64,000 bases of DNA. Source: an uncultured bacterium. GTDB lineage: Bacteria; Patescibacteriota; Minisyncoccia; Minisyncoccales; CAVTZN01. The DNA is taken from positions 59,903 through 123,902 of the forward strand of contig OY969803.1 in assembly GCA_963703245.1 (NCBI GenBank), written 5' to 3'. This document shows, one piece after another, positions 10,785 to 14,620 of this stretch. The notes beneath the pieces are model-generated. The model was not told where the DNA came from and searched no databases. It saw only the letters and a list, made by a program, of their open reading frames with translations. Each line of letters opens with the position of its first letter. Positions within the stretch are counted from its first letter, which is position 1. The translations under genes and the position numbers were made by a program.

Positions 10785-11339
10785 CTATAAAACTTTTCGA
10801 GGTAAAAATAATATTACTAAAGCAGAAATAAGGGCAAATATTCCCATAAGAATAAATAAAATATTAAATCCAAAAATAGTAGCTAAAATAGCGCCGAATA
10901 CGGCACCACCAGCTGTGGCAAAATTTCTCATTGCATCCCACGCTCCCCACTGAAAAGCTGGCCTTTTATGATCTAAATATTTAGAATAAAGCGCACTAAA
11001 AGCTGGCGTTTCAATCGCCTCTCCTATTCCTAAAAATATCTGGACAATAAATAAATGCCAAGGAGCCTTCACAAAGAGATAACTAAAGAAACTAATTGCT
11101 ATTATAAAATAACCTGCGCATATCCAAAGCTCTGTTTCTTTCAATATAATATCTTCGATTTTCCCCATTATCAAAATTAATACTCCCATCACTAAAGAAA
11201 AAACAGCAAAAGAAGTTCCAGCGGTTAGAATATCGCCTCCGATTTTTTCCACAAAAACAGCATAAATCGGACCAAGCATCGCAGCAGCGAGTAAAAATAA
11301 ACCGTCGGTTGTTAATAATATTCTTAATTGAATTGGCAT
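10785..11339 (-). CDS. small 6-TM membrane protein, MFS-half-like (possible polyamine-linked transporter)
   Basis: 184-aa, strongly hydrophobic with about 6 predicted helices. Starts 7 nt after the speE stop. Function inferred only from context. Confidence 0.45.
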   Translation of the reverse strand: MPIQLRILLTTDGLFLLAAAMLGPIYAVFVEKIGGDILTAGTSFAVFSLVMGVLILIMGKIEDIILKETELWICAGYFIIAISFFSYLFVKAPWHLFIVQIFLGIGEAIETPAFSALYSKYLDHKRPAFQWGAWDAMRNFATAGGAVFGAILATIFGFNILFILMGIFALISALVILFLPRKVL

Positions 11340-11346
11340 AAGTTTT

Positions 11347-12192
11347 TTAAATTTTTATAATTTGGGGCAAAATACCAGACGCTAAATGAATTTCCGGAGA
11401 ATAATATTTGGTTTTTAAATTTAATTTTTTATATCTTCGATTAATTATTTCAAAATTAATTTTATTTAAATTGATTTTAGAAGCCATTGTAAAGCTATAT
11501 TCCCCTGTGCCATAACAAGGAACGCACGCTCTATATACTTTTACATAAGGAAAAACTTTTTTAAAATTATTAAAAATTCTTTTAATTTGCGGAAACTGTT
11601 CTAAAAAAGTTCCGCTTTGGGTAATCATTACTCCTTTTTTAGTTAAGGCGTTAGAAATGTTTTTGTAAAATCTTTCTGAGAAAAGAGGAAGTGAGGGACC
11701 TAAAGGATCGGTTGAATCAATAATTATCACATCAAAATAATTATGGTATTTTTTAATAAACTTCATTCCGTCTCCAATAATAATTTTTGATCTTTTGTCT
11801 CTAAACGCTCCTTTTGAAACAAAAGGGAAATATTTTTTAGAAACATCAATAATTTTTTTATCAATTTCAACTAAAAAAACTTCCTTAATTGGATGTTTTA
11901 AAACTTCTTTTAATACTCCACCATCACCACCGCCAACAATCAATACCTTTTCTGGGCTTGGATGAGTAGATAGTGGCAAGTGAGCCATTATTTCATGATA
12001 AATAAATTCATCTCTTTCTGTTAATTGCACTATTCCGTCTAAAACCAACATTCGTCCATAAAAGGAAGTGTTAAAAATTTCAATTTTTTGAAAAGGGCTT
12101 CTGAGAGAAGTTATTTTCTTTTTTATCTTGATAGAAAATTTATTATTGTTTTCTGCCCCCGGTAAAATTTTTTCTGTAAACCACTTACTCAT
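11347..12192 (-). CDS. speE: spermidine synthase (aminopropyltransferase)
   Basis: 281-aa ORF with VLIVGGGDGGVLKEVLKH and IIIDSTDPLGP motifs of the spermidine synthase family. Confidence 0.9.
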   Translation of the reverse strand: MSKWFTEKILPGAENNNKFSIKIKKKITSLRSPFQKIEIFNTSFYGRMLVLDGIVQLTERDEFIYHEIMAHLPLSTHPSPEKVLIVGGGDGGVLKEVLKHPIKEVFLVEIDKKIIDVSKKYFPFVSKGAFRDKRSKIIIGDGMKFIKKYHNYFDVIIIDSTDPLGPSLPLFSERFYKNISNALTKKGVMITQSGTFLEQFPQIKRIFNNFKKVFPYVKVYRACVPCYGTGEYSFTMASKINLNKINFEIINRRYKKLNLKTKYYSPEIHLASGILPQIIKI

Positions 12193-12231: not shown

Positions 12232-12627
12232 CTATATTAATTTTCCTCTTTTTATTATTTTAATAACAATTTTTTTGGGCCGAAATTTTTTCTTTAGATA
12301 TCCTAAGGATTTATAAGGTGTTGATTTGTTTCCACAAGTGAAGATATCGATAGCTAAATAATTAAATTCTGGCCAAGAATGCAGGGCAATATGGCTCTCG
12401 GCTAATAAAATAACCCCAGTGATGCCATGGGGTGAAAATCTATGAATAGCCACTTTTAAAGGAGTATTATTCGCTTCTTTTGCTGCTTGAATTAAAATTT
12501 CTCTTATTTTTTTATTTTCTTCGATAGTTTTTCCATGCCAAAATTCGGCAATCAAATGGACACCTGCATATTTTTTATCTTTTTTTTCTTTGACCCATCG
12601 AATGGATCTCTTTGTTTTTTTGATCAT
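12232..12627 (-). CDS. speD: S-adenosylmethionine decarboxylase proenzyme (small bacterial/archaeal class)
   Basis: 131-aa ORF. ITGVILLAESHIALHSWPE contains the canonical Glu-Ser self-processing site and the HxWPE motif. Confidence 0.85.
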   Translation of the reverse strand: MIKKTKRSIRWVKEKKDKKYAGVHLIAEFWHGKTIEENKKIREILIQAAKEANNTPLKVAIHRFSPHGITGVILLAESHIALHSWPEFNYLAIDIFTCGNKSTPYKSLGYLKKKFRPKKIVIKIIKRGKLI

Positions 12628-12727
12628 TTCTTTTAAACAATCGCCTTACCAAGTAAATGTACTTTACTCAGCGGTTCTCAATGTGTTTTCATTGAGAAAA
12701 ACAAAGAGTTTAACAAAAAAGCGACTG

Positions 12728-13111
12728 TTATTCCCAAGGATACTTAACCTCTAAGGTTTCTACCTGTTTTGGTTTTACTTTTAGTTTATTATATAAATAT
12801 TTTCTAACTTTTTGATAGTCGAATTTGCGACAAGAAAAAACATCAATATATATCTCTTTAGTCTTTATAAAAGTATGAATCGAAATATGGGAAAAATCAA
12901 TTATAGCAAAACCAGTAATACCTGGATTCGTTCTGTCTAAATCACGCACTAAATTAGGACCTGAAAGAACTTTCATTTTTACAATTTTAGGAATTTCAAA
13001 TAATAATGAAAGAATAAAATTTTCATCATTAAGAAATTTTCTATTACAATCAAACGCATCAAAAATAATATGGTATGTTTTAGTAAATTTCTTTTTATTA
13101 TTTTTCTCCAT
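12728..13111 (-). CDS. divergent AdoMetDC-fold (pyruvoyl decarboxylase-like) paralog
   Basis: 127-aa ORF. ITGFAIIDFSHISIHTFIKTKEIYIDVFSC aligns with the speD segment ITGVILLAESHIALHSWPEFNYLAIDIFTC. The Ser is retained but the preceding Glu is Phe. Confidence 0.55.
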   Translation of the reverse strand: MEKNNKKKFTKTYHIIFDAFDCNRKFLNDENFILSLLFEIPKIVKMKVLSGPNLVRDLDRTNPGITGFAIIDFSHISIHTFIKTKEIYIDVFSCRKFDYQKVRKYLYNKLKVKPKQVETLEVKYPWE

Positions 13112-13217
13112 TTTATAATTAAAAAATAATTTTTAAATTATCATACAATGATATAACAAGAAAAAATATGGAATATTTTTTTATTATATTAAAATTAAAA
13201 AATCTTGCAATAGAAAA

Positions 13218-13266
13218 CCCCGCCCTCTATACCCATCGAATTTTTCAATAAGTTTAGAGGACGGGG
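13218..13266 (-). terminator. 12-bp stem (one G-U) with a 25-nt loop followed by a U-run; terminator/attenuator in the polyamine operon leader
   Basis: Plus strand CCCCGCCCTCTA (13218-13229) pairs with TAGAGGACGGGG (13255-13266). On the minus-strand RNA the stem is followed by UUUUCUAUU. Confidence 0.5.
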
Positions 13267-13277
13267 CTGAGATTTCT

Positions 13278-13307
13278 TTATCTCTTCTTCTTCTTTTTCT
13301 TTGCCAT
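13278..13307 (-). promoter_or_regulatory. candidate leader mini-ORF MAKKKKKKR*
   Basis: ATG GCA AAG AAA AAG AAG AAG AAG AGA TAA read from the minus strand. Its stop lies 11 nt upstream of the terminator stem. No SD visible. Confidence 0.25.
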
Positions 13308-13359
13308 TTTAGAATTTAAAATCCAAATAACATATTATTTTATTGGAAATCTTTTTATC

Positions 13360-13407
13360 TTAGCAACAAGAACATGATTTCTTGGTTTTTTTCTTCTTCT
13401 TTACCAT
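13360..13407 (-). promoter_or_regulatory. candidate leader mini-ORF MVKKKKKTKKSCSCC*
   Basis: Read from the minus strand. Enclosed by a perfect 10-bp inverted repeat (13322-13331 and 13412-13421). No SD visible. Confidence 0.25.
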
Positions 13408-13579
13408 TTTTGTTATTTGGATGAATTATTTTTTAGAAATTTTTATTGCAAATAGCCGACCATCTATCCGCAAAAAAGAATTATTAATATATTTTCGCAT
13501 TTCAAGAGATATTGTCAATAGTTTTTGGTTAAGTTATCCACAGTGTCTCAAAAATTTTTTAGTAGTCGCAAAAATATTT

Positions 13580-14471
13580 TTAAATTTGTCCGAGATATTG
13601 AATTTCTTCTTCTAAATTGATTCCAAATTTATTTTTTACTTTATTTTTTGCTAACTTTATCAATTTTATTACATCTTTTGCTTTTCCTTTTCCCAAATTA
13701 ACAATAAAGTTCGCGTGTTTTTCAGAAATTTTTACATTTCCAACTCTTTTCCCTTTTAAACCGCACTGTTCAATCAGTTTACCTGCTGAAAATTTAACAG
13801 GATTTTTAAATACTGAGCCTGCGGAAAAACCATGTGGAACTTTTTTAATTCTTGTCTTTAAAATTTCCTGGCGATTTTTCTCTATATTTTTTCTTTTTCC
13901 ATTTTTTAAATTTAAGACAACTTCCAAAATTATAGGTTTGCTGGTTTTAATTTTTTTAAGCCTTGAATTTCTGTATCCGAAAGCAAGCCACTTTTTCCTA
14001 ACTCTTTTTATCCCATCATTTATCATTAGAAGTTCAACTTTTTCAACACAGTCGCCAATTGCCCAAGCTCCTCTTGGCCAACCGGCATTACCATAAACCG
14101 CCCCTCCTATTGTCCCTGGGATACCACTACCTTTTTCTAATCCCGTAAGTCCCTTTTTTGCTGCTGCTTTTATAATCGTATCAAAAGTTGCCCCTGATTC
14201 TGCAATAATTTTTTTATTATTAATTTTAATTCTTCTTGCCTCATTTTTTATAAAATTCCTTGAAACCTTTGTCGGAAACTAATAAATTTGAACCTCCTCC
14301 CAAAACAAAAAATGGCAAACTTAATTCTTTTGCCACTGAAACTGCTTTGATTATTTCTTTTTTATTTTTTGCAACAAAAAAATACTTGGCTGGCCCGCCA
14401 ATCCGAAAAGTAGTATAATTTTTTAGCAAAACGTTTTTTTGAACGCCCGGTAATAATTTTGAGATATCCAT
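13580..14471 (-). pseudogene. murB: UDP-N-acetylenolpyruvoylglucosamine reductase MurB, interrupted by one frameshift near 14245
   Basis: N-terminal piece MDISKLLPGVQKNVLLKNYTTFRIGGPAKYF...GGGSNLLVSDKGFKEFYKK* stops at 14241. One frame over it continues NFIKNEARRIKINNKKIIAESGATFDTIIKAAAKKGLTGLEKGSGIPGTIGGAVYGNAG and runs into ORF 13580..14026 (SAGSVFKNP...GLKGKRVGNVKISEKHANFIVN). Confidence 0.8.
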
Positions 14472-14620
14472 ATTTTGAGCTTTAGTGAAAATATATAGTT
14501 CTTTAAAAGGAAAGTTTATATTATTGTATTTTATCAGAGTTTCCGCTAAAATAAAATTGGGTCGGGAGGATAGCACTCACTAAAGACTTAGTTTTGGAGT
14601 CAACTCTCCTGGCCCATTCT

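Follow-up and report, generated by a model that had tools for sequence, protein, structure and literature searches.

A window of 64,000 nucleotides (nt) from the genome of an uncultured bacterium of the order Minisyncoccales (contig OY969803.1, positions 59,903 to 123,902) carries, between murB and the genes of polyamine biosynthesis, a small unit in which two miniature open reading frames (ORFs) rich in lysine codons are followed by a very stable hairpin. A preliminary description of this DNA took the arrangement for a leader of the polyamine operon, in which the decoding of consecutive lysine codons would be coupled by attenuation to transcription of the spe genes. Our analysis favors another reading, to which we assign a probability of about 0.72: that positions 13211-13542 form a self-contained oligolysine micro-gene, duplicated internally, which stands beside the spe genes through the loss of the ribosome-hibernation gene hpf and is not the leader of their operon. 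The unit would be transcribed from its own sigma-70-type promoter, adjoined by a DnaA box, into an RNA of approximately 270 nt that starts with a conserved hairpin bearing a GGUCGR loop, continues into one Lys-rich frame (here two, MVKKKKKTKKSCSCC and MAKKKKKKR, after an internal duplication of about 100 nt), and ends at the very stable hairpin with its U-run. The spe genes would most likely be started from a promoter of their own just past that hairpin, and the product of the micro-gene would be a short polycation free of acidic residues, with RNA, ribosomes, or DNA as its binding partner.

The evidence that carries this reading comes in the first place from the order as a whole, where the mini-ORF and the stem are conserved among relatives: a search of 401 genomes for GGTCGGCTATTTGC with one mismatch allowed returned 106, of which about 45, belonging to many families, have the motif GGTCGRCTATTTGC. 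Approximately 42 places with the motif were fetched, and the unit counts given below rest on about 40 units, with 41 for the upstream elements and 43 for the ORFs. At nearly all of them the motif supplies the 3' half of a hairpin of the form (G)CAAAUAG-n-GGUCGR-CUAUUUG(C), and the unit consists of a TTGACA promoter, often a DnaA box, the leader hairpin with its GGUCGR loop, a Lys-rich ORF, and a hairpin followed by a U-run. The ORF begins 23-104 nt after the leader hairpin and is 9-80 codons long, its second residue being A, V, or P in all 43 cases and its last residue K or R in 42 of them; the family composition is K 60%, A 13%, T 9%, V 6%, and R 5%, with D and E absent from the ten commonest residues. 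Examples are MAKKKKKKK, MAKKKKKKKKKKKKK, MAKKKAKKTSKKKTSKKK..., and MATKKKAVAKKKPVAKKK..., the longer members being built from ordered KKKP/T/A repeats. Behind the ORF, 5-20 nt usually separate the stop codon from the stem of the terminal hairpin, and aaTCTTCTCAG is a recurrent spacer. A genome of another family, G037, displays the same series upstream of its AdoMetDC (S-adenosylmethionine decarboxylase) paralog: UGGUCGGCUAUUUGC, then ATGGCAAAGAAAAAAAAGAAGAAAAAGAAATAG, which encodes MAKKKKKKKK*, and then a long hairpin, CCCCGCUCCC...GGGAGCGGGG, with six or more U residues.

The upstream elements recur in a similar manner. In 37 of 41 units TTGAC[AC] is found ahead of the leader hairpin, and the distance between the two is much the same. 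A DnaA box of the strict form TTWTNCACA precedes 14 of the 41, as against 0.8 expected from shuffles, and it often lies right against the -35 hexamer. The boxes of this window and of loci L084 and L085 are reversed and placed approximately 20 nt further upstream. The position of this box near the promoter of the micro-gene suggests replication-linked control. In about 284 genomes that belong to the phylum but not to the order, the exact motif gave two matches, both of them false and inside coding sequence. We also tried a scan of bacterial contigs with a 14-mer and set it aside, as it returned random matches, the one Patescibacteria record (L127) being a false match in coding sequence. A sample drawn without the motif extends the family, since a Lys-rich mini-ORF lies upstream of hpf in 13 of 30 hpf loci from different families, 7 with the exact leader and 6 with diverged leaders. 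The diverged leaders keep a GGUCG or GGCCG loop while both sides of the stem have changed (CAAGUG/CACUUG in L219, AACAG/CUGUU in L227), and these variants provide the only real covariation for the leader hairpin. In a full-text search of the literature, which covered small proteins rich in Lys, small ORFs, and polylysine in this group of organisms, no paper describing the family turned up.

Recurrence on this scale bears directly on the view that ORFs and hairpins arose by chance in an AT-rich spacer, to which we attach next to no credence. The region is AT-rich, with 24 inverted-repeat pairs in 500 nt, and its 12-bp inverted repeat is of modest significance only, a perfect repeat of at least 12 occurring in 10 of 300 shuffles of the gap (p ~0.03). 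Against this stand the conservation of the whole unit in about 45 genomes of many families, the terminal hairpin (dG -35.8 kcal/mol, z = -8.5, with 0 of 200 shuffles folding equally well), and the scarcity of lysine runs: there are merely 20 runs of at least five AAR codons, in any frame, in the whole 516-kb genome, and the only three AAR runs that begin within two codons of a start codon are those of both mini-ORFs and one inside secA. As the origin of the ORF and of both hairpins, leader and terminal, chance is refuted; it may explain the 12-bp inverted repeat, but only that. That repeat had been described as a perfect 10-bp repeat enclosing mini-ORF1, and it is indeed perfect but 12 bp long; no relative was found that keeps it, with no close relative at hand for comparison, and in G001, a genome of the same genus (59% complete), both the leader and the AdoMetDC paralog are missing.

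A second line of evidence concerns the lysine frame itself. Of 412 G residues inside purine runs of the 43 ORFs, 321 occupy the third codon position, 49 the second, and 42 the first. AAG accounts for 9 of the 13 lysine codons of both mini-ORFs taken together and for 54% (361/669) across the family. The 268 long ORFs of this genome use AAG for 15% of their lysines, a share that rises to 41% within their K runs of three or more residues. Long A runs cause ribosome sliding; A runs in the family ORFs never exceed 9, and the AAG-rich codon pattern therefore resembles the avoidance of slippery poly(A), which is the opposite of what a sensor based on slipperiness would need. Start codon, second residue, and in-frame stop are kept over an almost ninefold range of lengths, and the frame is, to judge from these patterns, selected to be translated as lysine and apparently translated. 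The remark that neither mini-ORF has a visible Shine-Dalgarno sequence is true, yet uninformative for this genome, in which an SD-like 4-mer precedes only 10% of the 268 long ORFs compared with a background of 15%.

The same patterns weigh on the proposal that the unit is a small non-coding RNA in which hairpin and purine tract are the working parts, for example as a sponge or a seed for U-rich targets, and the ORFs are incidental. Conservation of the 5' hairpin is high, its loop and 3' arm being invariant, the predicted terminator is strong, the entire leader region is much more stably folded than its shuffles (z = -5.75), and the peptides match no protein family; such an RNA would, however, have no need of the ordered KKKP/T/A repeats of the longer members, and an ATG, an in-frame stop, and a 3-nt periodicity of G kept in 43 ORFs of very different length, together with the constraints on the second and last residues, make this proposal quite improbable. 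A covariance search of window positions 12500-14200 against Rfam returned only miRNA-like matches (E >= 4.8), and none of eleven related loci reached a gathering score.

In the window, direct reading of the minus strand confirmed the 468-nt gap between the C-terminal ORF of murB and a divergent AdoMetDC paralog, as well as the coordinates previously given for both mini-ORFs (Table 1). The genome is a single 516,640-bp contig of approximately 35% G+C in which the unit is present in one copy. Both promoter-like sites score 10/12 in a consensus scan, the one of the micro-gene having a TG in addition. The "12-bp stem" described earlier, CCCCGUCCUCUA/UAGAGGGCGGGG, is present, with its first C 11 nt past the stop of mini-ORF2 as had been stated, but it is only the base of a 24-bp hairpin. 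Ahead of it, minimum free energy (MFE) folds pair the last codons of mini-ORF2 with the pyrimidine spacer, and by eye there are analogues of this small hairpin in L023 and L031 (GAAGAA/UUCUUC and AGAAGA/UCUUCU).

Table 1. Coordinates of the micro-gene unit and of neighboring features (positions in the window)
Feature	Position	Strand	Details
DnaA-box consensus (predicted)	13542-13534	(-)	TGTGGATAA, which is TTATCCACA reversed; 16-24 nt ahead of the -35
Micro-gene promoter-like site	13518-13491	(-)	-35 TTGACA (13518-13513), TG (13499-13498), -10 GAAAAT (13496-13491)
Leader hairpin	13471-13448	(-)	GCGGAUAG / loop AUGGUCGG / CUAUUUGC; conserved in the family
12-bp inverted repeat, 5' arm	13422-13411	(-)	4 nt upstream of mini-ORF1; formed in the MFE fold
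Mini-ORF1	13407-13360	(-)	ATG GTA AAG AAG AAG AAA AAA ACC AAG AAA TCA TGT TCT TGT TGC TAA; peptide MVKKKKKTKKSCSCC*
12-bp inverted repeat, 3' arm	13332-13321	(-)	14 nt upstream of mini-ORF2
Mini-ORF2	13307-13278	(-)	ATG GCA AAG AAA AAG AAG AAG AAG AGA TAA; peptide MAKKKKKKR*
Small hairpin GAGAU/AUCUC	13284-13269	(-)	stop codon at the stem-loop boundary
24-bp hairpin and U-run	13268-13211	(-)	hairpin 13268-13216 (14 + 10 pairs, 3-nt loop), then UUUUCUAUU
spe-gene promoter-like site	13210-13183	(-)	TTGCAA-16-TATAAT, directly after the U-run
Divergent AdoMetDC paralog	12728-13111	(-)	Pfam AdoMet_dc
Pseudoknotted leader over the speD start codon	12727-12592	(-)	between the AdoMetDC paralog and speD; separate from the micro-gene
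speD-leader helix S1	12727-12719 / 12647-12638	(-)	closing helix, encloses CUCUUUGUUUUU
speD-leader helix S2	12708-12697 (CUCUUUGUUUUU) / 12619-12608 (AAAAACAAAGAG)	(-)	U-rich 12-nt strand with speD codons 3-7
speD-leader helix S3	12607-12593	(-)	hairpin after S2
speD	12232-12627	(-)	Pfam AdoMet_dc; downstream of the AdoMetDC paralog
speE	11347-12192	(-)	Pfam spermidine synthase; after speD
MFS_1 fragment	10785-11339	(-)	between speE and secA
murB, C-terminal ORF	13580-14026	(-)	Pfam MurB_C
murB, FAD_binding_4 ORF	14241-14576	(-)

The presence of two mini-ORFs in a unit that ordinarily has one is explained by the sequences of both. Mini-ORF1 lies 40 nt from the leader hairpin, which is the canonical distance of the family, and mini-ORF2 has the canonical C-terminus, spacer, and hairpin, its closest counterparts being MAKKKKKKKK* (G037), MAKKKKKKK* (L023), and MAKKKKKKKKR* (L081). 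The two regions share a 23-nt direct repeat of 87% identity at a spacing of 100 nt; a local alignment of both ORF regions (44-48 nt) scores 42 as against 26 +/- 4.5 in shuffles, of which 1 in 500 scored as high, and the alignment of AAAATGGTAAAG..AAGAAATC with AAAATGGCAAAG..AAGAAATC backs a duplication. In this alignment AGA TAA AGAAATC of mini-ORF2 corresponds to ACC AAG AAA TC.. of mini-ORF1, which has lost its stop and acquired the tail SCSCC*; the odd tail would thus be what is read when a duplicate copy without its stop continues into the former 3' untranslated region (UTR). We conclude that a local duplication of about 100 nt has made the second Lys ORF in this genome. Two tandem Lys/Arg-rich ORFs, MAKKKAKKKKAKRRRRCR and MPKRRKAKKKKAKKKRKPVKRKKAKRKRRR, were also seen behind one leader hairpin at L068/L241 (genome G050), so that internal duplication of the unit recurs.

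The genes that surround the unit elsewhere account for its position here. The first co-directional ORF after 35 units is hpf in 25, SecA in 3, AdoMet_dc in 3, pyruvoyl arginine decarboxylase in 2, and rplJ (far) in 1, and the usual order is the Lys-rich ORF, hpf, (AdoMetDC paralog, speD, speE), and secA, with spe genes and/or secA after hpf; several further units have speD after hpf. A gene for hpf (PF02482) was found in 41 of 61 sampled genomes of the order and is absent from this genome (G000) and from G037, and it is in both of these hpf-less genomes that a divergent AdoMetDC paralog comes right after the unit. The unit therefore adjoins the spe genes here because the genome has lost hpf. 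Five further units, all of one family (L072, L073, L074, L076, and L077), face a convergent cdaA (diadenylate cyclase) tail-to-tail, with the same leader hairpin and the longest members of all (51-88 codons of KKKP/T/A repeats). These five have no downstream gene to control, and the unit is therefore a gene in its own right. The link with polyamine genes proposed in the preliminary description thus holds in part: the unit recurs beside AdoMetDC in four cases, this window included, and directly before pyruvoyl arginine decarboxylase (PF01862) in two (L071 and L080), but it most often precedes hpf.

The proposal that the unit is a leader or attenuator of the spe operon is, in the main, not supported, given the variable downstream gene, the five convergent units, ORFs of up to 80 codons, the lack of an antiterminator, and the promoter-like site downstream. 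Mini-ORF2 is, as in an attenuator, a short ORF rich in one codon type (6 of its 9 sense codons specify Lys) just before a predicted terminator. Lysine is neither a substrate nor a product of AdoMetDC or spermidine synthase, so the codons do not match the end product of the pathway, and neither is there an obligate link to one operon transcribed only through the hairpin, as the downstream gene varies and a promoter is predicted after the hairpin. Such promoters are enriched in the family: a strict promoter pattern overlaps or follows the U-run in 12 of 34 units, versus 3.3 expected. In a search for an antiterminator, the 5' arm of the hairpin remained unpaired in the MFE fold once the 3' arm had been removed, and the best competing upstream duplex for it reaches -12.4 kcal/mol (shuffles, -8.4 +/- 2.2) versus about -35 for the hairpin. 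By eye we also considered whether the GGUCGG loop could pair with the 5' arm of the terminator, and we rejected this because a U.U mismatch would be required and relatives do not preserve the pairing. The idea that a ribosome at the stop of mini-ORF2 would sit on the 5' arm of the terminator is not supported by geometry, since toeprints place the leading edge of a ribosome about 15-16 nt beyond the first base of the P site, on the 3' side; with UAA (13280-13278) in the A site, this edge comes near 13268, at the weak A-U/G-U foot of the stem and not at its CCCC core. Variable context, missing antiterminator, geometry, downstream promoter-like site, and hpf loss together lead us to regard the spe genes as neighbors and not as cargo.

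A broader form of the idea is that the unit is a translation-coupled regulator in which translation of the Lys frame reports the status of Lys-tRNA, polyamines, or the ribosome and sets passage through the hairpin or activity of the downstream promoter, thereby tuning hpf or spe. The downstream gene, where there is one, is co-directional and near; the short distance from stop to stem and the recurrent spacer would fit, as would the repeated adjacency to hpf and polyamine genes, the imperfect U-run of this window, and the overlap, in many relatives, of the U-run with the -35 of the next promoter. The -35 of the next gene seems to lie inside the terminator tail, which would leave several hpf genes with almost no 5' UTR. 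By eye, the U-run was seen to run into GGTTGTTTTTTT-N8-10-TGnTAtAAT in L031, L053, L055, L081, L082, L084, L085, and L057-L059. The regulator is nevertheless made unlikely by the five units without a co-directional downstream gene, the length that the ORFs can reach, the absence of alternative pairing for the 5' arm, the weak foot of the 24-bp hairpin at about 13268 as the limit of a terminating ribosome's reach, the position of lysine outside AdoMetDC and spermidine synthase chemistry, and the enrichment in AAG, which favors smooth and not slippery decoding.

Several observations count against the self-contained micro-gene and have to be weighed with it. Six of 41 units lie directly before polyamine genes, and all assessable units other than the five convergent ones are co-oriented with and near to the next gene, so that there may be some functional coupling between the two. 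In this window the U-run is interrupted (UUUUCUAUU) and a simple consensus terminator scan does not call the 24-bp hairpin, so that read-through into the spe genes is possible. The basal stem of this hairpin recurs elsewhere in the 5' UTRs of rpsF and rplK, and it may have functions beyond termination. The alignment of motif-selected leaders has no covariation, only one-sided A-to-G changes in the 5' arm that keep G.U pairs, although this alignment is uninformative on the point because its 3' arm served as the search key. The promoters, the terminator, and the translation of the unit are all inferred from sequence. Finally, the peptides are without any match to a protein family: among ten longer members compared with Pfam and NCBIfam nothing exceeded a cut-off, the only matches with E <= 1 being HC2 (0.019), Dak2 (0.59), and hist_H1_lk_Burk (0.92), of which the last two are at chance level, and a search for homologous proteins with a 47-residue member gave no significant match. 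What the peptide does is therefore a guess.

Binding to ribosomes or RNA may be suspected because of the hpf neighborhood and the leader, which resembles those of ribosomal-protein genes; DNA binding may be considered as the alternative because of the H1-tail-like longer members and the DnaA box. We can go one step further, in a tentative vein and with considerably less confidence than in the micro-gene as such, and suppose that the oligolysine of 9-15 residues in this genome serves these ultra-small cells as a peptide counterpart of the polyamines or as a partner of the ribosome or of hibernation, under DnaA-linked control via the leader hairpin, and that it is kept beside hpf and polyamine genes since all three would manage the charge and dormancy of ribosomes and nucleic acids. 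If so, the link between polylysine and polyamines would be real at the level of function and not via attenuation. A gene the size of MAKKKKKKR lies far below what gene callers accept, yet it is conserved with a promoter, a leader hairpin, a terminator, and signs of codon-level selection. If the peptide is made, it would be among the shortest and most extreme conserved gene products of bacteria, and it could in minimal cells be a constituent of the nucleoid or the ribosome or take part in ribosome hibernation.

The terminal hairpin belongs at its base to a dispersed family. The basal 12 bp, CCCCG(C/U)CCUCUA/UAGAGGGCGGGG (CCCCGYCCUCUA/UAGAGGRCGGGG), occur in 28 of the 401 genomes with 1-5 copies each, and the reversed control pattern has no match in the same 401; the apical part varies, with an identical 51-mer in three genomes from three families. 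We considered the copy of this window (13216-13268) and those of L250, L245, L246, L251, L253, L254, L257-L259, L262, L263, L006, L009, L242, and L023. Its commonest location is between ychF and rpsF, 16 nt ahead of the rpsF start, where it lacks a U-run, and other copies lie in a spacer that by eye is nusG-rplK (L006), inside the speD pseudoknot leader (L242), and after the Lys-rich ORF in G185 (L023). This window and G185 have the hairpin in the terminator slot, 11 nt past the stop behind a ..TCTCAG spacer and followed by U residues, a slot that unrelated hairpins occupy in other units; the copy in the window has a U at stem position 6, which allows G.U pairing on the minus (Lys-ORF) strand only. 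A search of the dispersed loci against Rfam returned only Ref64 (E = 0.88). The S6:S18 motif of rpsF leaders is a stem-loop directly 5' of rpsF with an internal bulge containing two conserved cytosines (PMC3895269), and many copies of the dispersed hairpin likewise precede rpsF, but these have a single A.A mismatch and not a CC bulge. The dispersed hairpin may have spread as a mobile palindrome, or it may be a protein-binding hairpin in repeated use.

Between the AdoMetDC paralog and speD, the window contains a different structure, a pseudoknotted leader that extends over the speD start codon and is shared by at least 15 relatives. In 15 sequences, its closing helix S1 has compensatory changes in 9 of 11 pairs, with 97.5% of cells paired compared with 42-54% in slid controls, and S2 is an invariant 12-bp complement. 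Neither positions 12500-14200 nor the related loci gave an Rfam match for this leader. As a predicted element, it is a likelier polyamine-specific control than the micro-gene, and this covarying pseudoknot at the speD start is the place to look for control by polyamines or S-adenosylmethionine (SAM).

Some features of the flanks were recorded in passing. Around 14026-14576 murB lies in two ORFs, one with the FAD_binding_4 domain and one with the MurB_C domain. An alternative genetic code (table 25) did not join the split murB and left the local ORFs unaltered, and the standard code was kept for the genome. Between speE and secA lies an MFS_1 fragment of 184 residues, which covers profile positions 7-174 of 347 and looks truncated.

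The speD leader and the micro-gene invite comparison with different known systems. The former resembles the SAM-II/SAM-V H-type pseudoknots in that a U-rich strand pairs with an A-rich strand over the start of a SAM-pathway gene and the closing helix covaries, and it differs from them in having no Rfam match and in placing its 3' strand inside the coding region (codons 3-7). The micro-gene shares with the trpL, hisL, pheL, and thrL attenuators a very short ORF of one repeated codon type, situated about 11 nt from a stable hairpin with a U-run and on the same strand as biosynthetic genes; unlike them, it has no antiterminator and has a promoter-like site before the operon, its repeated Lys is unrelated to the pathway, the unit also precedes hpf, SecA, or no gene at all, and its ORFs reach 80 codons. 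A mini-ORF of repeated codons followed by a hairpin is, as a warning for annotation, not always an attenuator. Bacterial SpeFL and the eukaryotic AdoMetDC uORF with its peptide MAGDIS, to which the preliminary description pointed, are likewise small ORFs upstream of polyamine-pathway genes; their nascent peptides, which sense polyamines or ornithine, have specific arrest sequences and act on the gene directly downstream, whereas the unit described here encodes low-complexity Lys of variable length, is not tied to the spe genes, and contains no arrest motif or coupling structure that we could find.

Two further groups of known proteins bear comparison. With the tiny polybasic ribosomal proteins eL41, bS22, bL37, and bTHX the family shares peptides of 9-40 residues composed almost entirely of K and R; its gene has a structured 5' leader, as do autoregulated ribosomal-protein genes, and is habitually found beside hpf. 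It differs from them in having no Pfam or NCBIfam match and in its far more variable length and sequence. With the histone H1-like proteins of bacteria, namely chlamydial Hc1/Hc2 and the KPAA repeat proteins of the AlgP type, the contrast lies in the members of this genome, which with 9 and 15 residues of nearly pure Lys have no globular or repeat architecture, and the weak match to Pfam HC2 (PF07382; E = 0.019, 15.5 bits against a cut-off of 40) involves the 80-residue member only. The longer members of the family, with their KKKPAAKK and TAKKK repeats, nevertheless share the composition of H1 tails with these proteins, and a DnaA box at the promoter of the unit would suit a nucleoid protein.

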